In this document: piece after piece, positions 10,800 through 54,104 of the stretch
Layout: every line of letters starts with the position of its first letter
How positions within the stretch are numbered: the first letter of the stretch is position 1
Assembly (NCBI GenBank): GCA_028693955.1
Contig: JAQUUH010000002.1
Location: forward strand, 9,264-73,263
Reading direction: 5' to 3'
Origin: Bacilli bacterium
Lineage (GTDB): Bacteria; Bacillota_I; Bacilli_A; RFN20; UBA1709
DNA: 64,000 nucleotides
Position numbers and translations under genes: made by a program
Notes under the pieces: generated by a model
The model's input: the letters and a program-made list of their open reading frames with translations, nothing else
Databases searched by the model: none
Told to the model about the DNA's origin: nothing

Positions 10800-11118
10800 A
10801 AAAACAAAATTGATAATAGAGGAATTACGAAACTTAATTTCACATTACCCTTTAGTAAAAGAATTTAATATTCTTTCTAAAGACATTAAAAAAAATGATG
10901 AGTTAGAAAAATATGAAGAAAAACTCAAAAATTATCAAATGGAAATGGTACACTCATTAAACAACAATGATGATGATAAATATAACTCTATATTAAAAAA
11001 ATATGAATGTTTAAAAAATGATTATTACAACAATCCATTGCATATGAATTATTTGTCTTTAAAAGAAGAAATAAATTCTTTTATCCAAGAAATTGTTGAA
11101 ATATTAAATAATCCATAA
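10783..11118 (+). CDS. ricA: YlbF/YmcA-family protein (RicA-like regulator)
   Basis: An all-helical 111-aa protein with the YmcA-like pattern (..I..Y......F......+..ND.L..YEEKL.NYQ ... NPLHMNYLSLKEEINSFIQEIVEIL versus B. subtilis IPVIQEFRDSQMEVNDLLQLV). It sits immediately after miaB, exactly as ymcB-ymcA in Bacillus. The call rests on weak similarity plus synteny. Confidence 0.45.
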   Translation: MKQLDKKTKLIIEELRNLISHYPLVKEFNILSKDIKKNDELEKYEEKLKNYQMEMVHSLNNNDDDKYNSILKKYECLKNDYYNNPLHMNYLSLKEEINSFIQEIVEILNNP

Positions 11119-11148
11119 AAGAATGATTTATTTCATTCTTTTTTTTCA
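11117..11148 (+). terminator. Rho-independent terminator after the ricA-like gene
   Basis: Hairpin AAGAATGA-TTTAT-TCATTCTT followed by TTTTTTTC. Confidence 0.5.
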
Positions 11149-11277
11149 TTAAATCTTTTAAAAAGTGTATAATTTAGTAAATTGCAACCAATAGTTGTCA
11201 ATTTTCAAACTACAATAGATAGTGCAACCAAGTATTTTAATGATAATATTTGATTGCAAAACAAGGAGGTGTAATCT

Positions 11278-12003
11278 ATGAACATTGAAATTGCAAATAG
11301 ATTATTAGAACTTAGAAAAAAAGCTGGTCTTAGCCAAGAAGAGCTTGCTAACAAATTAGGAATTAGCAGACAATCTGTATCCAAATGGGAGCGCGCAGAA
11401 TCATCGCCTGACACAGATAATTTAATATGCCTAGCAAAGATTTACAATGTATCTTTAGATGAAATATTAAATACCGATGAAACAATCGAAGAAATAGCCA
11501 AAAGTGCTAAAAAAAGAGCTGATGAAAAAATACAAATTATAAAAGGGGATAAATGCATGATTATAAATGGGAAAGGAACGACATATGTCCCAAGATTTAG
11601 TCAAAGACAAAAAAGAAAAGTTTCTAAAATGCATAAATTCCCATACCCAATTTTTGTAATTATAATCTACCTAATTCTTGGTAGTTTATTTAACTGGTGG
11701 CACCCTGGTTGGTTATTGTTTTTAACAATCCCTTTATACTACACACTAGTTGAAGCAATTGCAAAAAAATCAGCATTAATATTTGCTTATCCAGTTCTTG
11801 TGACAATTGTATTTTTCATCCTTGGATTTTATTATAATTGGTGGCATCCTGGCTGGGTAATATTTGCAACTATACCATTATATTATTCATTAATTTCTTT
11901 TGGAAAAGATAGAAATAGTAAAAAACATCAAGAAGTTAATGATATTGATGACGATGATGATGAAGAGGATGATATTGACGATGAAAAAGATAATATGGAG
12001 TAG
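11278..12003 (+). CDS. Membrane-anchored XRE-family HTH transcriptional regulator with a duplicated 2-TM module and an acidic C-terminal tail
   Basis: N-terminal Cro/C1 HTH (LRKKAGLSQEELANKLGISRQSVSKWERAESSPDTDNLICLAKIYNVSLDEIL). Two tandem copies of [TM]-(F/Y)NWWHPGW-[TM]-IPLYY follow, then a tail DIDDDDDEEDDIDDEKDNME. The RBS AAGGAGGTG lies 7 nt upstream. Confidence 0.7.
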   Translation: MNIEIANRLLELRKKAGLSQEELANKLGISRQSVSKWERAESSPDTDNLICLAKIYNVSLDEILNTDETIEEIAKSAKKRADEKIQIIKGDKCMIINGKGTTYVPRFSQRQKRKVSKMHKFPYPIFVIIIYLILGSLFNWWHPGWLLFLTIPLYYTLVEAIAKKSALIFAYPVLVTIVFFILGFYYNWWHPGWVIFATIPLYYSLISFGKDRNSKKHQEVNDIDDDDDEEDDIDDEKDNME

Positions 12004-12961
12004 TATCTTACTATTAGCAGCAATTGGAGTTGCAATATGGTCATCATTTGATTTTAAAGGGTTCCCAACAATTACGGAGGAAGGTAATACTATGAATAAA
12101 ATAATCAATGAGGAAGTTAATAAAATATACTTAGAAATAGATAATAGAGCAATAGAAATAACTGCTAGCGAAGATGAAAATTATTATCTAGACTATACAG
12201 AATCCAAATTTTTAAACACAACTTATAGTTTTAAAGACGGAGAGTTATCTCTTATGCAAAAACAAAAAAAGGTTTTATCATTTTTTAACTGGGGATTTCA
12301 AAATCATGATAAAGTTATATTGAAAATTCCAGCAAGCTTTAATGGAAAACTTATTGGTATAGCAAGCAATGCTTCAATTAATACATCATTAGAAAATACA
12401 ATGGAAAAAATTGAGTTAAAAACTTCTAATGCTAAAATAAATGCTAAAGATTTTATAGCAACTAATTGCTTTTTCCAAAGCAGCAATGGAGATGTAACTA
12501 TTCATAACACTTCTTGTTTAGAGGGGGTATTACATGTTGAAACAAGCAATAGCGATGTAACTGTTTCAGATACAAACTGTCCCGAACTTGTAGCAGAATC
12601 TTCAAATGGAAATATAATTATAAGTCATGTTAAAGCAAATGAAATAACTGCTGAGACTTCTAACTCAAGTATAGAATATTACTATAATACTGCAAATAAG
12701 ATTATTGCTGAAACTTCTAATGGTAGAATTAATGGTAGTAGTAATGAAATTGACATTATGCAACTAACAACAAGCAATTCTAGAGTTGAAGTATCAATAT
12801 TGGGTGAAATTGAAGATTATAAACTTTATGCCAAGACTTCTAATGGTTCTATTGAAATTGGAAATTCACGTTTTGGAGATGAAGTAATAATTGAAAATGA
12901 TGCAACAAAAATTGTAGATATAGAAACAAGTAATGGATCTGTAGTAATTGATTTTAATTAA
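11981..12961 (+). CDS. DUF4097-family beta-repeat protein (LiaG/YvlB-like putative adhesin domain) with an N-terminal TM anchor
   Basis: N-terminal TM helix IIWSSILLLAAIGVAIWSS. At least 6 repeats of the ~20-aa beta-strand unit (A/V)ETSN(G/S)x(I/V)... follow (VETSNSDVTV, AESSNGNIII, AETSNSSIEY, AETSNGRING, TTSNSRVEVS, AKTSNGSIEI, IETSNGSVVI). The start could be any Met between 11900 and 11981. It overlaps the 3' end of the XRE gene in another frame. Confidence 0.65.
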   Translation: MKKIIWSSILLLAAIGVAIWSSFDFKGFPTITEEGNTMNKIINEEVNKIYLEIDNRAIEITASEDENYYLDYTESKFLNTTYSFKDGELSLMQKQKKVLSFFNWGFQNHDKVILKIPASFNGKLIGIASNASINTSLENTMEKIELKTSNAKINAKDFIATNCFFQSSNGDVTIHNTSCLEGVLHVETSNSDVTVSDTNCPELVAESSNGNIIISHVKANEITAETSNSSIEYYYNTANKIIAETSNGRINGSSNEIDIMQLTTSNSRVEVSILGEIEDYKLYAKTSNGSIEIGNSRFGDEVIIENDATKIVDIETSNGSVVIDFN

Positions 12962-12999
12962 CAATTCAATTTCATAAATCTTAAAAATAATAATTTAAT

Positions 13000-13032
13000 A
13001 AAAAAACCAAGACTTAATTGTCTTGGTTTTTA
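13000..13032. terminator. Bidirectional rho-independent terminator at the convergence of the DUF4097 gene (+) and mfd (-)
   Basis: A-run, then CCAAGAC-TTAATT-GTCTTGG, then a T-run. The mfd stop codon lies inside the loop. Confidence 0.5.
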
Positions 13033-25796: not shown

Positions 25797-25842
25797 AGTT
25801 TTTTTCCCTCCAATTATCTAATAATAATTATACATTCATTAA

Positions 25843-25878
25843 ATAAAAAAGTGAACGTTTTTACTCGTTCACTTTAAA
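25843..25878 (-). terminator. Rho-independent terminator downstream of the EF-G-like gene
   Basis: On the minus strand, AAAGTGAACG-AGTAAAAA-CGTTCACTTTTTTATTT. Confidence 0.5.
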
Positions 25879-25884
25879 TATACT

Positions 25885-27948
25885 TTATTGTTCTACTTTA
25901 TTTTCTTTAATTATTTTATCAATTAAATTACCAGGAACCTCATCATATCTTAAAAACTTCATCGTAAATGTTGCTTGCCCCTGAGTCATAGTTTTTAAAT
26001 CTATAATATATTTTTGAAGCTCAACTTGTGGACACTCTGCAGTAATATATTGCTCATCTCCAATAGGTTCAATTCCCATTATCAAACCCCTGCGTTTGCT
26101 TAAATCTCCCATAATATCTCCTACATAATCATTAGGAGCTACTACTACAATTTCCATTATTGGCTCTAATATTGTTGGTTTAGCAGCCCTACACCCATCC
26201 TTGAAAGCAAATGAAGCCGCCATTTTGAAAGCTAATTCACTAGAATCAACTGGATGATATTTACCATCATGCAAAGTTGCTCTTATTCCTATGACAGGAA
26301 AACCTGCTAGTACTCCTGTTTTCATAGCGTCTTCTAATCCTTTTTGAACAGCAGGTATAAAGTTTGTTGGAACTGCTCCTCCAAATATATCATCGACAAA
26401 TTCGAAAGATTCTTTGCTTGGTTCAAATTTTATATTTACAATACCATATTGCCCTGATCCACCAGATTGCTTAACATATCGACCTTCAACATCAGCACTA
26501 CCTTTAATAGTTTCGCGATATGATATTTTAGCATCACTTAGTTCTGCTTCAATATTATAAATGTTTTTTAGTTTATACATGACATTATCGATTTGTGATT
26601 GTCCCTGACAACCAACTAGTAATTGCTTTGTTTCGGCATTTCTTTCAGCCGTTATTGAAACATCTTCATAACATATCTTGCGTAATGACTCTGTAATTTT
26701 ACCTTCATCATTTTTATTTTTAACCGATAGAGCATAGTATATTGTAGGTTGAACTTTTTCTATTTCCATATATTTTATTGGCTTTGTTGGATCACAAATT
26801 GTATCTCCAGTTTCTAAAGAATTAACCTTAATTAATACTCCAATATCTCCAGCCAAAACCTTGCTTGTTTCAAGTTGTTCTTTGCCTCTAATAAAAGAGA
26901 TATTATTAATTTTTTCTTTTTCATCTTTATTAACATTTAATATTGTTTGATCCTTACTCATAATTCCAGATCTAACAGCAACATAAGATATCTTTCCAAT
27001 AAATGGATCAACAACTGTTTTAAAAACAAAACCAGAGAAAGGCTCATTTACATCAACCTTGCGCTCAATTATTTCTAGTTCATCTGTTGCCTCTCCAAAC
27101 GGTGTTCTTAAATCTGCTTCAGATGGGAAATAATCTCTAATTGATCTTAAAAGAGTTCTTACACCAACATCTTTTGAGGCTGATCCAACAATTACTGGAA
27201 CTAAATTACCTGATAATATTCCTTTTCTCAAACCTTTTTTAATCTCATCATAAGTTACTTCTTGATCTTCTAATACTTTCATCATGACATCATCATCAAC
27301 GTTAGCAACAGATTCAACTATCATATCATGAAGTTTTTTAACTTGATCTAACCTTTCAGGCCAAATTTCATCATCATGTGATTCCTTACCATCATATATT
27401 CTAGCTTTCATATCAACAACATTGACAAAACCCTCAAATTTTTCACCATGACCTATTGGCCAACAAAAGGGAACTGCTCTTTTTCCTAGTTGAGATCTTA
27501 TAGAATCAATTAACTTATCAAAATCCACATTTTCTTTATCCATTTTATTGATAAAAACAATGGAAGGAATAGATTTTGATCTAACATATTTCCAATGCTT
27601 TCTAGTTCCCACTTCAACACCTTTTTGAGCATCTATTATTATTAAAGCTGTTCTAGCAACTCTACTAGCACAAATTATCTCTTGCTGAAAATCAAAAAAA
27701 CCAGGAGTATCAATAAAATTGTATTTTATCTCTTCCCATTCTACTGGTATTAAACTATTATAAATTGAAATCTTCGCATTTTTTTCCTCTTTTGTATAAT
27801 CAGAGACTGTATTCCCATTTTCAATTGTTCCTTTTTGGGTAATTGCTCCACTTACTTTTAACAATGATTCTACTAGCGTTGTTTTACCGCTACCTTGATG
27901 TCCTAGCACTACCACATTACGGAGTTGACTAGGGGTATAGTCCTTCAT
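25885..27948 (-). CDS. Elongation factor G family translational GTPase paralogue (divergent)
   Basis: Five-domain EF-G architecture (G domain with NKMD and SA motifs; domain IV KQSGGSGQYG; domain V GDLSKRRG). G1 is GHQGSGKT instead of AHxDAGKT. Switch II is DTPGFFDF instead of DTPGHVDF. Confidence 0.8.
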   Translation of the reverse strand: MKDYTPSQLRNVVVLGHQGSGKTTLVESLLKVSGAITQKGTIENGNTVSDYTKEEKNAKISIYNSLIPVEWEEIKYNFIDTPGFFDFQQEIICASRVARTALIIIDAQKGVEVGTRKHWKYVRSKSIPSIVFINKMDKENVDFDKLIDSIRSQLGKRAVPFCWPIGHGEKFEGFVNVVDMKARIYDGKESHDDEIWPERLDQVKKLHDMIVESVANVDDDVMMKVLEDQEVTYDEIKKGLRKGILSGNLVPVIVGSASKDVGVRTLLRSIRDYFPSEADLRTPFGEATDELEIIERKVDVNEPFSGFVFKTVVDPFIGKISYVAVRSGIMSKDQTILNVNKDEKEKINNISFIRGKEQLETSKVLAGDIGVLIKVNSLETGDTICDPTKPIKYMEIEKVQPTIYYALSVKNKNDEGKITESLRKICYEDVSITAERNAETKQLLVGCQGQSQIDNVMYKLKNIYNIEAELSDAKISYRETIKGSADVEGRYVKQSGGSGQYGIVNIKFEPSKESFEFVDDIFGGAVPTNFIPAVQKGLEDAMKTGVLAGFPVIGIRATLHDGKYHPVDSSELAFKMAASFAFKDGCRAAKPTILEPIMEIVVVAPNDYVGDIMGDLSKRRGLIMGIEPIGDEQYITAECPQVELQKYIIDLKTMTQGQATFTMKFLRYDEVPGNLIDKIIKENKVEQ

Positions 27949-28052
27949 AAAAATTCCCTCCTATTTAATAATATTTTAATATTTCAACGACCACGATTAT
28001 ATTTTAACATTAAGTGGTGTATAAGTGTATAACTTATTTATCTTTTTTGAGT

Positions 28053-34517: not shown

Positions 34518-34610
34518 TCTCCTAATAAAAGTGCCATATCACATATTTAAACTACTTAAGGCTGCTACCTTCCGATCCTGACCTGGTTCATAGACAAACA
34601 TTGATATGGC
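34518..34610 (-). ncRNA. ffs: Signal recognition particle RNA, small (4.5S-type, no Alu domain)
   Basis: The minus-strand transcript contains the domain IV core AACCAGGUCAGGAUCGGAAGGUAGCAGCCUUAAG (cf. E. coli CCAGGUCAGGUCCGGAAGGAAGCAGCCAAGG). A closing helix GCCAUAUCA...UGAUAUGGC is followed by a U-run. The ends are approximate. Confidence 0.8.
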
Positions 34611-34641
34611 ATAAATAGTATAATGTAAAAACTTAATTTTA

Positions 34642-41337: not shown

Positions 41338-41366
41338 ATAAAAAAACTGCGTTACCGCAGTTTTAT
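41338..41366 (-). terminator. Terminator hairpin between jag and mnmE
   Basis: On the minus strand, AAAACTGCGGTAACGCAGTTTTTTT. Confidence 0.5.
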
Positions 41367-41962
41367 TCTACATAATATATAGTTATCTGTCTTTTATATC
41401 CTTGTCCACTACTTTCAGTCTTAATATTTTTCATTTTACTTAAAGCATTATGAATTATTCTTCTTTCATCTGAAGTCATAGGATCAAGTACTGCGTTAAC
41501 TTTAGTTTTTTGAACTTCTCTAGCAATTCTTGTTGCCATTCTTATAAGTTTTTCATATTTTTCGTCTTTATAAGAATTTATATCTAGAAGTATACTATAA
41601 TGACGCTTAAATTGATGACTTACAGCTTGACGAACAACACTATTTAAGGCCTGTAATGTTTGACCATTTTTACCAATTAAAACAGCATTATGAGATGTAT
41701 TCAAAGCAATTCTTATTACGCCATCGTCTAGTGTAGATTTTACCTCATCTTCTAAACTCAAATCATTCAAAACTTTTTTTACATAATTTTCTGAAAATTC
41801 AATTACATCTGCAATTGTAAAAACCATTATTTCTATTTTTTTAGAAAAAAGTTTCTTTTCTTCTTTAATAATCTCATAACTAATTTCTTCTACTGGTATA
41901 CTTAACTCTTCACTTGCAATATTTAAAACTTCTTCTAAAGATTTACCTACATAACTCTTCAT
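41363..41962 (-). CDS. jag: Jag/KhpB RNA-binding protein (SpoIIIJ-associated; Jag_N, KH and R3H domains)
   Basis: Jag_N MKSYVGKSLEEVLNIASEELSIPVEEI, a KH-like GKNGQTLQALNSVV and a C-terminal R3H domain. The yidC-jag synteny is conserved. Confidence 0.8.
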   Translation of the reverse strand: MKSYVGKSLEEVLNIASEELSIPVEEISYEIIKEEKKLFSKKIEIMVFTIADVIEFSENYVKKVLNDLSLEDEVKSTLDDGVIRIALNTSHNAVLIGKNGQTLQALNSVVRQAVSHQFKRHYSILLDINSYKDEKYEKLIRMATRIAREVQKTKVNAVLDPMTSDERRIIHNALSKMKNIKTESSGQGYKRQITIYYVE

Positions 41963-43021
41963 TTAATATTCCCTTCTTGCATTTTTTTTATCAACAATTT
42001 TTTTCATAATTATTGCTTGGAAAACAGAGAAGAGTGAAGAAGCAATCCAGTAAACAGACATTGCAGAAGGAAGCATCCATCCAATTACTACTACCATTAT
42101 TAACATAATATATGTAAATGATTGTGTTTGATTTTGAGCTTTCCTTGATTTTTCATCTAAATGACTTATCTTATTACGATTTAGTAATTGTGGTATTTTC
42201 ATCGATAAGAATTGGCTACCAACCATCACTAAGAAGACTATTATTGCCATAATATTTATAGACAAAATTCCTGAACTAAGTGTTTGCCCTAAATTAAGTC
42301 CTAAAACAGATCCTTCGCGCAATAACATTGTATCTTTTACTGCACCATAAACTGCCAAAAATATTGGTAGAGTTAAGAAAGGTGAAATAATAGCAGTTAA
42401 TGGGTTAACTTTATTTTTCTTATAAAAAGCCATCATTTCTTGTGCTTGTTTTTGTTTTTGTACAGGATCTTTTGTTTGCCCATATTTTGCATTTATTGCT
42501 GAAATTTCTGGTTGCAATAAAGTAAGTTTTTGAGAAGCCAAACTAGGCTTTAAAGTTATCAAAGTAACAAATGCTCTTACTAAAAATGTAACAATAAATA
42601 TTGCTAAAACTTGACCCCATCCGCCTGTTCCTATCATTTCAGTAAAATTAATCATTAGCCAAGCAATAGGGAAAACAAATATCCCTTCAATTAAACCCCT
42701 TGAAATTGCAAAAGAGAAATTCTTAGGCTCAATAGTTACACCCGTAATTGGATCTTGTTTTTCCTCAATTGTCAAACAAGCTTTAGGGTGAGAAGTCTTA
42801 TAAAGATTATCAACATAACTTTGTTTGTCGGTTTCGCTTTTAGTAAGCCAATCATCTGGTGTAGCATAGGCATCTGTACCTGTACTATTATCCAACATTA
42901 CTCTTAATTCAGTTTTAATTTCGGCTGTTTCTTCATCACTACAAAAATCACTAGTACATGATGTTGTAGAAAGAACCATAAACGCTAATAAAAACACTGC
43001 TAACGCCTTAAGTAATTTCAT
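41963..43021 (-). CDS. yidC: Membrane protein insertase YidC/SpoIIIJ (lipoprotein type)
   Basis: Lipobox LSTTSC with 5 TM helices of the 60-kDa inner-membrane insertase family. The rnpA-yidC order is conserved. Confidence 0.85.
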   Translation of the reverse strand: MKLLKALAVFLLAFMVLSTTSCTSDFCSDEETAEIKTELRVMLDNSTGTDAYATPDDWLTKSETDKQSYVDNLYKTSHPKACLTIEEKQDPITGVTIEPKNFSFAISRGLIEGIFVFPIAWLMINFTEMIGTGGWGQVLAIFIVTFLVRAFVTLITLKPSLASQKLTLLQPEISAINAKYGQTKDPVQKQKQAQEMMAFYKKNKVNPLTAIISPFLTLPIFLAVYGAVKDTMLLREGSVLGLNLGQTLSSGILSINIMAIIVFLVMVGSQFLSMKIPQLLNRNKISHLDEKSRKAQNQTQSFTYIMLIMVVVIGWMLPSAMSVYWIASSLFSVFQAIIMKKIVDKKNARREY

Positions 43022-43675: not shown

Positions 43676-43890
43676 TGTGGAAAATTTATAAAAACCCTTA
43701 TCAATATTAAGGTTTTCGTTGTGGAAAATTTATAGTTATCCACATATTTTATCCACATATCAACACCAATCCACACCATTGTGACTTTTCCACACAGTTT
43801 CCACATTTTTTATTTGTGGATAACTCCTGTTTTACCCGCTTTTTCAAAGTATTTTTAAATATTATGTGTGTTGATAAAGTGTGGAAAACA
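43676..43890. promoter_or_regulatory. oriC upstream module (DnaA-box cluster, incA/incB-like) and dnaA promoter region
   Basis: At least 9 DnaA boxes matching TTATCCACA with at most 2 mismatches, in both orientations. Plus orientation: TTATCCACA x2 (43736-44, 43749-57), AATCCACAC, TTTTCCACAC, TTTCCACAT. Minus orientation: TGTGGAAAA x3, TGTGGATAA. Confidence 0.8.
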
Positions 43891-43967
43891 TTTTTTTGAT
43901 GATTTTTGTATTTATTTTACTAATTCCATATGTTAAAATATATGAACAAAGTTGGGAGAGAGTACAT

Positions 43968-45326
43968 ATGGTTCTTAATGCCTCGCGTTTTGAGGATGTT
44001 TGGGATAAGGTATTATCTAGGTTTGAGAGAGAGACCGATGATAAAATTATCTATAACACTTATTTTTTGGGTTCTAAAATTATTGGTATAAATGAGGGCG
44101 TTGTGACAATTGTTGCCCCTTCACGTTTTGCTTGTCAAATGTTAAATAACAGGTTTTTTGATAAGATTGTAAATTATTTGCGTGATATTACGCAAACAAA
44201 TTTTGATTGCCAAATAATTGATCCAGAATCCGCTGAAAATTTTTCTAATTTGCAAATTGATAATAATATGTCGCAAAATGAAAAGGTTTTTGTATCAAAT
44301 TTAAATCAAAGATTTACTTTTGAAAATTTTGTTGTTGGTCACTCCAATAGAGAGTGCTACACTGCTGCTTTATCAACAGCAATGGACCCAGGTAATTTTT
44401 ATAATCCTTTATTCATGTATGGTAAATCTGGTCTTGGAAAAACTCATTTACTACATGCTATTGGAAATTTCATTAAAAATAAAAACAATTTAACAAAAGT
44501 TCTTTATCTTACTGCAGATGATTTTTTCGAAGATTATATAAAAACCGTAAAAAAAGAAGGAACAGAAAACCTAAAAGATAAATATCGCGGAATAGATGTT
44601 TTATTACTCGATGATATTCAATTTTTAAGAGCAAAAAATGCTACGCAAGAAACATTTTTTAACATTTTTAATCTTCTAGTAAACTCTGGAAAACAAATCG
44701 TTATCACTGCAGATAAACCACCTCAAGAACTAGAAAAAATAGAAACTAGATTAGTAGGGAGATTTTCTTCAGGATTAAGTGTTGAAATTCAAGCGCTAGA
44801 ATTTGAAACGGCCTTAGCTATATTAAAAAAGAAAGTAGAAGCCCAAGATATTAATAGAGGACTAATAGATGATGACGTTCTTAAATATATTGCTCAAAAC
44901 TATTCTACAGATGTAAGGCAATTAGAAGGAGCCTTAAATAAATTGTTATTCTATGCTATTACTTATAACAAGAAAGACGAAATTGATATGACAACAGCAC
45001 TAGAAACATTTAAATCCTTTGCAAAAATAAGAGAAAACACAATTAATTTTGAAAAAATAAAAGTTACAGTAGCAGAATACTATAATATTTCTATAAACCA
45101 ACTTACTTCTAAAATAAGACAAACAAACTTAACTGTTCCTAGACACATTGCTATGTATCTTTGTAAAACTATGTTAAATGCTCCTTATAAAAAAATAGGA
45201 GAAGAGTTTGGGGGAAAAGATCATTCAACTGTGATTAGTGCATGTGAAAAAGTTAATAGATTGTTGAAAGAAAACGAAGAATATGTTGTCGTTATAGAAG
45301 AGCTAAAAAAACTAATAAAATCTTAG
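43968..45326 (+). CDS. dnaA: Chromosomal replication initiator DnaA
   Basis: N-terminal domain (W..V...F...........I.....G.VTIVAPSRFA...L..RF), an AAA+ module GKSGLGKTHLLHAIGN, sensor motifs, and a C-terminal DNA-binding domain. The start is at ATG 43968 after GGAGAG; the ORF track's 43881 extension is a hydrophobic read-through artefact. Confidence 0.95.
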   Translation: MVLNASRFEDVWDKVLSRFERETDDKIIYNTYFLGSKIIGINEGVVTIVAPSRFACQMLNNRFFDKIVNYLRDITQTNFDCQIIDPESAENFSNLQIDNNMSQNEKVFVSNLNQRFTFENFVVGHSNRECYTAALSTAMDPGNFYNPLFMYGKSGLGKTHLLHAIGNFIKNKNNLTKVLYLTADDFFEDYIKTVKKEGTENLKDKYRGIDVLLLDDIQFLRAKNATQETFFNIFNLLVNSGKQIVITADKPPQELEKIETRLVGRFSSGLSVEIQALEFETALAILKKKVEAQDINRGLIDDDVLKYIAQNYSTDVRQLEGALNKLLFYAITYNKKDEIDMTTALETFKSFAKIRENTINFEKIKVTVAEYYNISINQLTSKIRQTNLTVPRHIAMYLCKTMLNAPYKKIGEEFGGKDHSTVISACEKVNRLLKENEEYVVVIEELKKLIKS

Positions 45327-52548: not shown

Positions 52549-52584
52549 GATTTTATTTAAAATAAAAGTATATAATTATATAAA

Positions 52585-52812
52585 TCAATGAGCAAGAATA
52601 GTAATCTTTTATTGATATTGTAGAGAGTTGCTGCTTGGTGAAAGGCAATTATTGATATTTGATGAATCCACTTGTAAGAGGGATGGCGAAACTTCCCCGG
52701 TTGAAAACCGTTATCATGGAGAGAACATTGTTTCACGTGAAACAATTGAAATAGGGTGGCACCACGATTAATTCGTCCCTTACTAAGGAGCCTTTTTATT
52801 TATTTTTAGAAG
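52585..52812 (+). promoter_or_regulatory. T-box riboswitch leader (probable Ser specificity) upstream of serS
   Basis: The conserved T-box sequence AATAGGGTGGCACCACG (consensus AAUUAGGGUGGNACCGCG) lies ~45 nt before the RBS. The stem I region has AGAGAG and a GNUGA-like motif. A candidate terminator helix and T-run (AAGGAGCCTTTTTATTTATTTTT) sit just upstream of the serS RBS GGAGG. Confidence 0.6.
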
Positions 52813-52826
52813 ATGGAGGAAATAAT

Positions 52827-54104
52827 ATGTTAGATATTAAGTTAATACGTGAAAACCCCGAAAAAATAATTCAAAGATTGAATACTAGAGGTAAGGATTA
52901 TTCTATTTTTGTAAAAGAAATAGTGAATTTTGATGAGTTAAGAAGAGAGAAATTGCAAAAAGTAGAAGAACTAAAACAATTTAGAAATCAACAATCTAAA
53001 CTTATAGGAATTTATAAGAAAAACAATGAAGATACAACAAAACTTTTTCAAGAGATTGCTGGTATAGGTGAAGAAATTTCAAAATTAGATTTAGAAGTTG
53101 CAAATTATGAAGAAAAAATTCAGAAGAATATGTATGAATTGCCTAACCTTCCTAACGAAAAAGTTTTTATAGGAAAAGATGAAACTCAAAATAAAGAAGT
53201 TCGTCGTTGGGGAAATCCAAGAAAATTTGATTTTGAATTTAAAGCACATTGGGATTTGGGCGTTGATTTAGACATTTTAGATTTTGATAGAGCAGCAAAA
53301 ATCACAGGTGCAAGATTTGTGGTTAATAAGGGATTAGGAGCAAGATTAGAAAGAGCTGTTATGAATTTTATGCTAGATATTCACACTTACGAACATGGTA
53401 TAAAAGAAATAATTCCTCCTTTTATGGTTAATGCTACTTCGATGTATGGTACTGGTCAATTACCAAAGTTTGAAGAGGATTTATTTAAGATTGAAAAAGA
53501 AGGGTTTTATTTGATTCCAACAGCGGAGGTTCCTGTAACTAATTTACATGCTAATGAGATACTTGATATCAAGCAACTTCCAATAAAATACTGTGCTTAT
53601 ACGCCTTGTTTTAGAAGTGAAGCAGGTTCTGCAGGAAGAGATACAAGAGGAATTATAAGATTACATCAATTTAATAAAGTTGAATTAGTAAGATTTGCAA
53701 CACCAGAAACTTCCTACCAAAATTTAGAGGAATTAACTCATGATGCTGAAGAAATATTGCAAAAACTTGAATTGCCATATAGAGTAATTCAATTATGTAC
53801 TGGAGATATGGGATTTGGGTCTGCGATGACTTATGATATTGAAGTATGGTTACCATCTTACAATGCCTATAAAGAAATAAGTTCTTGTTCAAATTATGAA
53901 GACTTTCAAGCAAGAAGAGCTAATATCAAATTTAGAAGGGATCCTAAAGGGAAAGCCGAACTTGTTCACACATTAAATGGTTCGGGACTAGCAATAGGAA
54001 GAACAGTTGCAGCAATTATAGAAAATTATCAAAATGAAGATGGTTCAATTACTATTCCCCAAGCTTTAAGAAAATACTTTAATGGCGAGGAAGTTATAAA
54101 ATAA
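52827..54104 (+). CDS. serS: Serine--tRNA ligase
   Basis: N-terminal coiled-coil arm and a class II core with motif 2 ([21 protein letters not shown]) and motif 3 (GSGLAIGR); 425 aa. Confidence 0.95.

Follow-up and report, generated by a model that had tools for sequence, protein, structure and literature searches.

Members of the EFG II family, the largest group of elongation factor G (EF-G) duplicates, do not all behave alike: the three that have been studied biochemically gave three answers, the Thermus protein being an active GTPase, the Bacteroides protein a GTPase-free slow translocase and the Mycobacterium protein a ribosome trap. For Thermus thermophilus EF-G-2, intrinsic and ribosome-dependent GTPase activity as well as translocation activity have been reported (PMC3150367; bioRxiv 10.64898/2026.05.25.727771). 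Mycobacterium smegmatis EF-G2, in which the catalytic His is replaced by Tyr98, is without ribosome-dependent GTPase activity; its proposed role is that of a stress factor that traps ribosomes after translocation. In EF-G1 of the same organism H88Y nearly abolishes GTPase activity and R62Q reduces it (bioRxiv 10.64898/2026.05.25.727771). Bacteroides thetaiotaomicron EF-G2 is reported to translocate slowly without GTP hydrolysis and to be induced by carbon starvation (PMC12775393, PMC10994844). Six so-called type-I positions separate EFG II from EFG I, namely Gly16(19), Leu25(28), Ser61(64), Thr291(316), Gly333(360) and Lys/Arg352(379) (PMC3150367), and in the EFG II P-loop a Gly replaces the Asp that binds a monovalent cation (PMC4342817).

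The EFG II sub-subgroups described in 2011 do not mention Mollicutes/Tenericutes, and Acholeplasma, Izemoplasmatales and Haloplasmataceae types are not named there (PMC3150367). We find that the Firmicutes/Mollicutes branch of the family is large and includes 80 GTDB species, some of them cultured: Acholeplasma oculi, A. granularum, Maledivibacter and Caloranaerobacter. Our literature search found no experimental study of an EF-G2 from Firmicutes/Mollicutes (including Acholeplasma); its one lead was C. difficile “fusA2”, the argyrin target. EFG II relatives carry the plain label “elongation factor G”, and some exceed the canonical equivalog cutoff; such labelling can lead conclusions on metabolism or essential genes astray when they are drawn from metagenome-assembled genomes (MAGs). 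The case analysed here is of only modest importance.

An EF-G paralogue gene outside the str operon

The window, by which we mean the whole 64-kb stretch of Bacilli bacterium DNA that was analysed, carries one EF-G-like gene with the following features:

25885..27948, minus strand: coding sequence of an EFG II-type elongation factor G paralogue, 687 aa (ORF with ATG start and TAA stop)
27956..27962, minus strand: strong Shine-Dalgarno sequence AGGAGGG, 7 nt 5' of the ATG
27996..28023, minus strand: promoter-like site TATACA-16 nt-TATAAT (consensus match only), inside the 104-bp gap after rsmI
25838..25875, minus strand: terminator-like hairpin (25848..25875; 10 bp stem with 4 GC pairs) plus T tract, TTTTATTTAAT, 10 nt past the stop codon

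An exact-sequence look-up identified the 687-aa protein as MDD3383342.1 and MFA7156291.1, labelled “elongation factor G [Bacilli bacterium]” by NCBI. Pfam places the five EF-G domains on it in order (GTP_EFTU 8–276, EF-G_D2 303–386, EFG_III 400–471, EFG_IV 474–590 and EFG_C 593–678), and its AlphaFold2 model (mean pLDDT 92.1) has the EF-G fold, with TM-scores of 0.95 to 7pjv (EF-G on the ribosome), 0.93 to 9k0z, 0.92 to 8dmf and 0.86 to 1wdt. The five-domain architecture, including the G' insertion, is thus present by Pfam and by a model that reaches TM 0.86–0.95 to EF-G and EF-G2 structures. A sequence-only reading of this DNA had described a five-domain EF-G homologue of this length with its own terminator, lying apart from ribosomal operons and without a canonical fusA in the window, and all of this stands: every motif that it quoted is in the ORF translation, the hairpin and T tract come right after the stop codon, and the neighbours are tmk-holB-ricT(PSP1)-rsmI upstream and pepS(M29)-hydrolase-metG downstream. 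The gene is outside the rpsL-rpsG-fusA-tuf (str) operon, which the window does not approach at either end (nth/recU/recA on one side, mutS/mutL/miaA on the other). In a tblastn search of the 64-kb window with the paralogue, nothing else reached significance (E = 0.13 for the runner-up), which leaves it without a second EF-G-like gene, and no canonical EF-G was found in the 84 flanks or loci that were fetched.

We infer from these signals that the gene, which lies about 16 kb from oriC, forms a transcription unit by itself. An Rfam scan of the window gave no leader or riboswitch near it, and its effective number of codons (ENC), 36.4 where the median for the window is 36.7, says little about expression because the genome is AT-rich. 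No partner gene is conserved between lineages among 80 loci; synteny is lineage-specific: rsmI lies upstream in the window's own clade, Clostridia have ctsR-mcsAB-clpC downstream, and Acholeplasmataceae have a small CxxC ORF and hpf there. Stress and hibernation neighbours were considered as functional evidence and set aside; they are suggestive, but they lie 120–1100 nt or one gene away and look positional.

Nucleotide-binding and ribosome-contacting motifs

The motifs of the protein lie as follows:

27880..27903, minus strand: G1/P-loop GHQGSGKT, aa 16–23; first position Ala→Gly, monovalent-cation position Asp→Gly (Gly19), and L25 next to it replaces Thr
27763..27777, minus strand: G2/switch I AKISI, aa 58–62 (RGITI in canonical EF-G); Arg→Ala58 and Thr→Ser61
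27688..27711, minus strand: G3/switch II DTPGFFDF, aa 80–87; catalytic His replaced by Phe84, codon TTT at 27697..27699
27538..27549, minus strand: G4 NKMD, aa 134–137, guanine specificity; intact, and NKMD in 82/82 loci
27175..27186, minus strand: G5 GSAS, aa 255–258; intact
26437..26463, minus strand: domain IV loop I GGSGQYGIV, aa 496–504; Gln500 kept, position 503 (Ile) variable in canonical EF-G and EFG II
26239..26265, minus strand: domain IV loop II GKYHPVDSS, aa 562–570; His565, equivalent to T. thermophilus H573 by alignment, kept

The switch I Thr→Ser change is typical of EFG II, while Arg→Ala is unusual even there, the Arg being kept in 116 of 145 paralogue representatives. This double alteration of RGITI to AKISI was absent from the earlier reading, as was the well-studied loop II His (GKYH565PVDSS). 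That reading had instead taken the His of GQYGHV in loop I, Ile in this protein, as one implicated in translocation, and here it does not hold: the position is H, E or Y among the five canonical representatives, and the His studied in translocation is T. thermophilus H573 (compare PDB 1FNM, “EF-G H573A”), which is retained as H565. Every one of the 145 paralogue representatives has His at the place of H565. We take this position to be E. coli H583. The acidic G' region of the protein is intact as well.

Assignment to the EFG II family

Judged by its sequence features, the gene is a divergent second type of elongation factor G that belongs to the already described EFG II / EF-G2 family. When the type-I positions are mapped through an alignment with T. 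thermophilus EF-G, all six EFG II residues of Table 1 in PMC3150367 are present (G16, L25, S61, T311, G355 and K374). Among the 145 non-canonical representatives the same residues occur 116 (G), 119 (L), 111 (S), 118 (T), 138 (G) and 143 (K) times, whose counterparts in the five canonical representatives are for the most part A, T (2/5), T, I/V, A and G. The G-motif pattern published for EFG II (PMC3150367) is likewise found (GHQGSGKT, AKISI, DTPG, NKMD and GSAS), and the canonical set is not, GHQGSGKT, AKISI and DTPGF standing in place of AHxDAGKT, RGITI and DTPGH. At the cation site of the P-loop, Gly19 of our protein agrees with 97 of the 145 representatives, and all five canonical proteins have Asp.

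Profile ranking gives the same result. The top model is NCBIfam NF009381 (PRK12740.1-5, an “elongation factor G” subfamily) at 841.8 bits, well over its cutoff of 583 bits, and the canonical TIGR00484 reaches 625.5 bits, below its trusted cutoff of 659.4; for the canonical Dictyoglomus EF-G the ranking is reversed (TIGR00484 1148.8, NF009381 869.6). NF009381 is also the top model for eight relatives, from Clostridia, Haloplasmataceae, Acholeplasma, Izemoplasmatales, Anaeroplasma and RF39. In a neighbor-joining tree of the G domain, a distance tree of 76 sequences with few canonical members (five) and no spdEFG or Tet outgroups, the five canonical EF-Gs split from all other sequences, including our protein and T. 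thermophilus EF-G-2 (1WDT), with 100/100 bootstrap support. Family membership is thus established in the present analysis, and the sequence-only proposal of an EF-G2-type paralogue rather than a housekeeping translocase, for which HMM comparison and a phylogeny had been named as the check, is confirmed by the six signature residues, the preference for NF009381 over TIGR00484, the tree and the lack of a str operon. Within EFG II its probable place is the slowly evolving Firmicutes (“Clostridia-type”) branch.

The protein scores 549.7 bits on the actinobacterial EF-G2 model NF009377 (cutoff 890) and 564.5 bits on the Bacteroidetes EF-G2 model NF058620 (cutoff 1000), the latter with its best stretch covering only residues 1–515; since it is below the cutoffs of both characterised groups, it is not an orthologue of the EF-G2s whose mechanism is known. 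Classification through overall similarity was tried and rejected: the protein and a profile of 77 relatives both score higher on canonical EF-G structures than on the T. thermophilus, M. smegmatis or B. thetaiotaomicron EF-G2s. Such similarity fails to discriminate because the solved EF-G2s are long-branch members, and signature residues, HMM ranking and the tree were therefore used in its place.

Loss of the catalytic histidine across the family

The missing catalytic His is a hallmark of the whole EFG II / EF-G2 family, so the observation that drew attention to this gene is real but ordinary. His occupies the catalytic position in none of the 120 nearest homologues; across 82 genomic loci the residues are Y32, N18, S14, A9, F6, T3 and H1, and among the 145 non-canonical cluster representatives Tyr (66) and Phe (32) are accompanied by others, with His in three. 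The best relative in a search of genome contigs is 82% identical, and identity to Clostridia and Tissierellia members, which have RxxSI in switch I, is 50–53%. The dN/dS of the gene, measured against a 97%-identical orthologue (GCA_053526135.1), is 0.018. Sequence comparison across the family indicates that the loss of the His is ancestral and selected.

Proposed mode of action and alternatives

We favour, as the probable reading, a Firmicutes-branch EFG II member with an accessory function, turning GTP over slowly or not at all. The protein would bind GTP, because G1, G4 and G5 are intact, and would dock in the ribosomal factor site as EF-G does, given that its model fits onto EF-G in the ribosome-bound state and that it conserves domains II–V and the two tip loops of domain IV with His565. 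The canonical GTPase-activation machinery appears to be missing (His→Phe84, Arg→Ala58, Thr→Ser61 and P-loop Asp→Gly19), from which slow or no GTP turnover and a putative accessory role, beside a canonical FusA encoded elsewhere, would follow. Loss of the His is by itself no proof of inactivity, since T. thermophilus EF-G-2 has His→Tyr and is reported to be GTPase-active; with the His→Phe, switch I Arg→Ala and P-loop Asp→Gly changes all applying, impaired hydrolysis, which the earlier reading predicted, is plausible. The physiological role could be slow, GTP-sparing translocation, as for B. thetaiotaomicron EF-G2, or the holding of ribosomes in the post-translocation state under stress, as for M. 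smegmatis EF-G2. Nucleotide binding, GTPase loss and physiological role are all predictions here. A stronger version, in which this uncultured Bacilli / Erysipelotrichales-like clade has a translocation or ribosome-parking factor that senses GTP but never hydrolyses it, is suggested by the loss of three GTPase-activation elements with the nucleotide pocket and translocation tip kept at a dN/dS of 0.018, and we put it forward tentatively, as somewhat less than an even chance. If true, it would be the first such factor in Firmicutes/Mollicutes, and it would hint that GTPase-independent EF-G2 function is widespread, beyond Bacteroides and mycobacteria. A member that has Phe here, and whose nucleotide pocket is otherwise intact, would offer a clean test of whether the switch II residue decides GTPase competence.

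The alternative with the most in its favour is that the paralogue, like the Thermus protein, has kept its competence in ribosome-dependent GTP hydrolysis and in translocation, with His-independent catalysis, and serves as a condition-tuned alternative translocase. T. thermophilus EF-G-2 is reported to be active in both respects with GHAGSGKT and DAPGYGDF in the corresponding motifs, and the intact G1, G4 and G5, acidic G' region and domain IV loops of our protein, together with very strong purifying selection (dN/dS as above), also speak for it. We nonetheless judge this unlikely: Phe has no polar group with which to position or activate water, where Thermus has Tyr; the switch I Arg that most relatives keep is lost too; mutation of the equivalent Arg, or His→Tyr, cripples the GTPase of M. 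smegmatis EF-G1; and Gly has taken the place of the P-loop Asp that serves the monovalent cation.

Three further explanations are much less probable than this. That the gene is a divergent housekeeping translocase and the sole EF-G of its organism would agree with the pipeline annotation “elongation factor G” and with the lack of a canonical fusA in the 64-kb window and the 84 fetched flanks, but the window is a small part of the genome, the full EFG II signature set is present, the score is below the TIGR00484 equivalog cutoff and best on NF009381, and there is no rpsL-rpsG-fusA-tuf context. Moreover, among 590 genomes EFG II was “always accompanied by another EFG”, usually EFG I (PMC3150367), and C. 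difficile has more than one fusA gene (PMC13392398), its family, the Peptostreptococcaceae, being the one to which two uncultured MAGs (L015 and L017) with the paralogue are assigned; we consider a sole EF-G very improbable. Slightly more doubtful still is membership of the Tet(M)/Tet(O) ribosomal protection proteins or of the EF-Gs specialised in recycling (spdEFG2 / mtEF-G2 type). These families share the EF-G architecture and are easily confused, since PDB 7uvp, identical in sequence to 8dmf (ribosome-bound B. thetaiotaomicron EF-G2), was deposited as “TetQ”; the score on tet_protect NF012153, however, is 295.2 bits against a cutoff of 775, the Tet(M)/(Q) models are far lower, and full-length identity to EF-G is much above that to TetM. 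An artefact, whether a misread His codon or a pseudogene in decay, is scarcely credible and has nothing in its favour except that it is possible a priori: the ORF of 687 codons is intact under the selection noted above, and His→Phe takes two base changes (CAY→TTY). The earlier reading had held that CAT misread as TTT might overturn it, and this is refuted because the substitution is family-wide, common to the whole clade with His in 0/120 nearest homologues, and because ENA and JGI contigs, which are independent, and two NCBI records all carry the identical protein. Tet proteins and mtEF-G2 retain the catalytic His (His145 in mtEF-G2), which counts further against a Tet or recycling type.

Comparison with known EF-G systems

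Canonical EF-G (FusA, EFG I) has about 35–40% full-length identity to our protein, the same five domains and the same domain IV tip His, and the best PDB sequence matches are canonical EF-Gs (E~1e-155); AHxDAGKT, RGITI and DTPGH, on the other hand, are all changed in our protein, and the str operon is lacking. B. thetaiotaomicron EF-G2 (fusA2, BT_2167; 7UVP / 8DMF) is likewise an accessory EF-G paralogue, one that binds the ribosome, and it superposes on our model with TM 0.92. Its group differs in the G2 motif, which is YGYSV in Bacteroidetes EF-G2 (PMC3150367) and AKISI here, and Cur regulation, on the B. thetaiotaomicron side, is Bacteroidetes-specific. M. smegmatis EF-G2 (9K0Z / 9K10; TM 0.93) shares the replaced catalytic His and the unconserved switch I Arg, but it is 33% identical and has degenerate G1 (GPSGG), G4 (TKLD-like) and G5 motifs that are intact in our protein. 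T. thermophilus EF-G-2 (1WDT / 2DY1; TM 0.86) is also EFG II and is similar in its P-loop (GHAGSGKTTL) and in the replacement of His by an aromatic residue (DAPGYGDF), and it differs in having Tyr and not Phe, TKLD at G4 and about 34% identity; because the Thermus protein is reported to be active in GTP hydrolysis and translocation, its function is not simply transferable to ours.

The closest described system is the Clostridia sub-subgroup of EFG II (Margus, Remm and Tenson 2011, PMC3150367; Atkinson 2015, PMC4342817), with which our protein shares the six type-I residues, G1 as GhxxxGKT with the cation-site Gly, a relaxed G2 (xxxSx), G3 DxPG, G4 NKxD and G5 SA. The Clostridia branch has few indels and evolves slowly, and our protein is alike in this. 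The small clade to which the window belongs, an uncultured Bacilli / Erysipelotrichales-like lineage, differs from Clostridia EFG II in AKISI, where the Arg is gone, and in having Phe at the catalytic position in place of the commoner Tyr.

The gene and its product

The paralogue gene, which runs from ATG to TAA, encodes a 687-aa protein in which Pfam recognizes the five EF-G domains in order, and its translation contains all of the motifs quoted in the sequence-only reading. The gene, its motifs (positions in the translation) and its predicted signals are as follows:

25885..27948, − strand: EFG II gene, by ORF call
aa 16-23: GHQGSGKT
aa 80-87: DTPGFFDF (Phe84 codon TTT at 27697..27699)
aa 134-137: NKMD
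aa 255-258: GSAS
aa 496-504: GGSGQYGIV
27996..28023: promoter-like TATACA-16-TATAAT, inside the 104-bp gap after rsmI
27956..27962: strong Shine-Dalgarno sequence, AGGAGGG
25848..25875: hairpin plus T tract, immediately past the stop codon

The last three elements suggest that the gene has expression signals of its own, and the hairpin and T tract directly 3′ of it agree with the terminator previously assigned to it. No second EF-G-like gene was found in the 64-kb window, as had been said of canonical fusA.

The protein corresponds to NCBI records MDD3383342.1 and MFA7156291.1 (“elongation factor G [Bacilli bacterium]”), and independent metagenome contigs from ENA and JGI also encode it, identical and with unchanged neighbours. 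An Erysipelotrichales MAG orthologue is 97% identical in protein but just 89% identical in DNA; the dN/dS of this pair is 0.018 (208.5 synonymous and 22.5 non-synonymous differences), and purifying selection on the gene is therefore very strong. The EFG II gene is genuine and well conserved, neither an error nor a relic.

Family assignment

The EFG II subfamily was defined by Margus et al., who reported six positions with different conserved residues in EFG II and EFG I (PMC3150367). We mapped these positions through an alignment with T. thermophilus EF-G and counted them on an alignment of representatives, the best 150 of the 50%-identity cluster representatives drawn from 1.84 billion proteins. 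The window protein has all six EFG II residues (G16, L25, S61, T311, G355 and K374), which occur in 116, 119, 111, 118, 138 and 143 of the 145 non-canonical representatives, respectively, whereas the canonical ones have mostly A, T, T, I/V, A and G. Its P-loop monovalent-cation site is Gly, in agreement with the EFGII of Atkinson (PMC4342817). NCBIfam model NF009381 scores 841.8 against it and the canonical equivalog TIGR00484 only 625.5, under the 659.4 cutoff; eight relatives from Clostridia, Tissierellia, Haloplasmataceae, Acholeplasma, Izemoplasmatales, Anaeroplasma and RF39 give the same ranking, and Dictyoglomus canonical EF-G the reverse (TIGR00484 1148.8, NF009381 869.6). In a G-domain neighbour-joining tree, five canonical proteins are split from all others, including the window protein and T. 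thermophilus EF-G-2 (bootstrap 100/100). Clostridia members of its clade carry RxxSI, the G2 motif of the “Clostridia sub-subgroup” (PMC3150367). The protein thus very probably belongs to EFG II, and the six residues, model ranking and tree bear out its earlier description as an EF-G2-type paralogue and not a housekeeping translocase. It falls under the cutoffs of the actinobacterial NF009377 and Bacteroidetes NF058620 EF-G2 models, so it is no orthologue of the characterised EF-G2 proteins, and also under that of the Tet protection model.

Four His-less EFG II proteins (L006, L011, L022 and P0136) exceed the TIGR00484 “EF-G equivalog” cutoff (675-815 versus 659.4 bits), so annotation pipelines can name such proteins as the canonical factor.

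The catalytic position in homologues

None of the best 120 homologues has His at the catalytic position, which is F, L or Y instead. Among the 150 closest cluster representatives, 145 are non-canonical (Y66, F32, S8, D8, L7, N7, ...) and only 5 have canonical AHIDAGKT / RGITI / DTPGH, for example Dictyoglomus and Gluconobacter EF-G; across 82 genomic loci of 80 GTDB species the residues are Y32, N18, S14, A9, F6, T3 and H1. A sequencing error at the His codon, raised earlier as a possible explanation of Phe84, is refuted by this prevalence of non-His residues and by the same protein on independent contigs. An Izimaplasma homologue (L064:1974-4049) reads DTIGHKEF, with the His kept and a conserved Pro lost, and one canonical representative (P0232, 1040 aa) is extended at its N-terminus by ~340 aa.

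Distribution, neighbourhoods and the putative origin region

The clade occurs only in Firmicutes-type lineages (82 loci, 80 GTDB species): Clostridia, Tissierellia, Peptostreptococcaceae, Haloplasmataceae, Izemoplasmatales, Anaeroplasma, RF39, Erysipelotrichaceae and Acholeplasma, including cultured A. oculi and A. granularum. The best relative among the genome contigs searched is 82% identical. Two MAG records with Firmicutes-type EFG II loci, L076 (JAMPDF010000001.1, “Prevotella sp.”; syntenic with Anaeroplasma L074 and L075) and L021 (LQBE01000038.1, “delta proteobacterium ML8_F1”), probably have wrong taxon labels or come from contaminated bins.

Gene order differs by lineage:

Window’s clade: holB-ricT-rsmI-[EFG II]-pepS
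Clostridia: NIF3-[EFG II]-ctsR-mcsA-mcsB-clpC-radA
Acholeplasmataceae: Fic-CvfB-ProS-[EFG II]-small CxxC ORF-long HPF

Clostridia, Tissierellia and Peptostreptococcaceae share the arrangement in which EFG II is flanked by a NIF3-family gene on one side and the class III heat-shock operon on the other (L009, L015, L017, L018, L022, L024, L038, L053, L067 and others). In Acholeplasmataceae a long-form HPF (Pfam S30AE + S30AE_C) follows EFG II at a conserved spacing of 389-477 nt (L023, L027, L031, L036, L037, L049, L058, L061, L065, L066, L070, L071 and L077; e.g. L049:12061-13071). The intervening ORF, at most of these loci ~110-125 aa with an N-terminal CxxC...CxxC and in four shorter and motif-less, is possibly a ComFC-like remnant. 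These stress and hibernation neighbours fit a stress role but were not counted, since gaps of 120-1100 nt or a gene intervene and no partner gene common to different lineages was found around the fetched loci.

No canonical EF-G was found in the 84 fetched loci. A survey of 590 genomes found EFG II always with another EF-G (PMC3150367), and C. difficile has more than one fusA gene (PMC13392398); these reports indirectly favour co-occurrence with another EF-G. Argyrin B resistance mutations in C. difficile map to a gene named fusA2, in a paper that mentions fusA paralogues (PMC13392398). In Clostridia, EFG II is located upstream of ctsR; should this put it closer to the origin than the str operon, as in B. 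subtilis, the number “2” may belong to the essential canonical gene, a numbering that could cause confusion.

Other features of the window are:

41363..41962, −: jag
41963..43021, −: yidC
43881..45326, +: dnaA
1710..2041, +: RNase P RNA class B (Rfam, over gathering score)
34521..34617, −: small SRP RNA (likewise)
52579..52783, +: T-box leader (likewise), directly upstream of serS (52827..54104)

The genes jag and yidC (−) face dnaA, dnaN, recF, gyrB and gyrA (+), and cumulative GC skew has its minimum at ~43 kb. The chromosomal oriC appears to lie between these groups at ~43-44 kb, which would place the EFG II gene ~16 kb from it on the leading strand. At ~11000..13000, just ~31 kb from the putative origin, gene orientation and the sign of the GC skew switch a second time, convergently; this is odd for a replichore and could be an inversion or a MAG assembly join.

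Probable action and comparison with known EF-G2 proteins

The nucleotide-binding elements (GxxxxGKT, NKMD, SA) are undamaged, as is the domain IV tip. The argument from its loop was mistaken: position 503 is H, E or Y even in canonical EF-G, and the His implicated in translocation is kept. Gln500 is retained, and His565, in a loop II (GKYH565PVDSS) overlooked earlier, aligns with Tth H573, which is mutated in PDB 1FNM, and is invariant across 145/145 paralogue representatives. Three hydrolysis-activating elements of canonical EF-G are replaced: the switch-II His by Phe84, the P-loop Asp by Gly19 and, in switch I (AKISI versus RGITI, also overlooked), Arg by Ala58 and Thr by Ser61. The switch-I Arg is kept in 116/145 relatives, so its loss is specific to this small clade.

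Such a protein would bind GTP and the ribosomal factor site, turn GTP over slowly or not at all, and work as an accessory factor beside canonical FusA; we consider this whole reading, EFG II membership included, fairly probable. GTPase deficiency as such, the “hydrolysis-impaired” of the sequence-only reading, is a reasonable inference with slightly better than even chances. The chief reservation comes from T. thermophilus EF-G-2, which likewise lacks the catalytic His (GHAGSGKT / DAPGYGDF in 1WDT) and yet is reported to be active in translocation and to have GTPase activity, both intrinsic and ribosome-dependent (PMC3150367; bioRxiv 10.64898/2026.05.25.727771). In M. smegmatis EF-G1, ribosome-dependent GTPase is nearly lost in H88Y and lowered in R62Q; EF-G2 of that species, naturally Tyr98, has no GTPase, and its proposed role under stress is to trap ribosomes in the post-translocation state (bioRxiv 10.64898/2026.05.25.727771). 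B. thetaiotaomicron EF-G2 catalyses translocation without hydrolysing GTP, and carbon starvation induces it (PMC12775393, PMC10994844).

The closest solved-structure sequence matches are canonical EF-Gs (E~1e-155, full length). The AlphaFold2 model (pLDDT 92.1, pTM 0.86) superposes best on ribosome-bound EF-G (7pjv, TM 0.95) and on EF-G2 of M. smegmatis (9k0z, 0.93) and B. thetaiotaomicron (8dmf, 0.92), followed by 1wdt (0.86), and just 0.66-0.72 is reached with free canonical EF-G crystals. The protein is chiefly of value as a warning for annotation, and it may offer a clean test of GTPase-independent EF-G2 function. The family was described in 2011, and the family-wide absence of the catalytic His has been documented before in Thermus and mycobacterial members; what is new is an uncharacterised Firmicutes-branch member, a Phe variant that has additionally lost the switch-I Arg.
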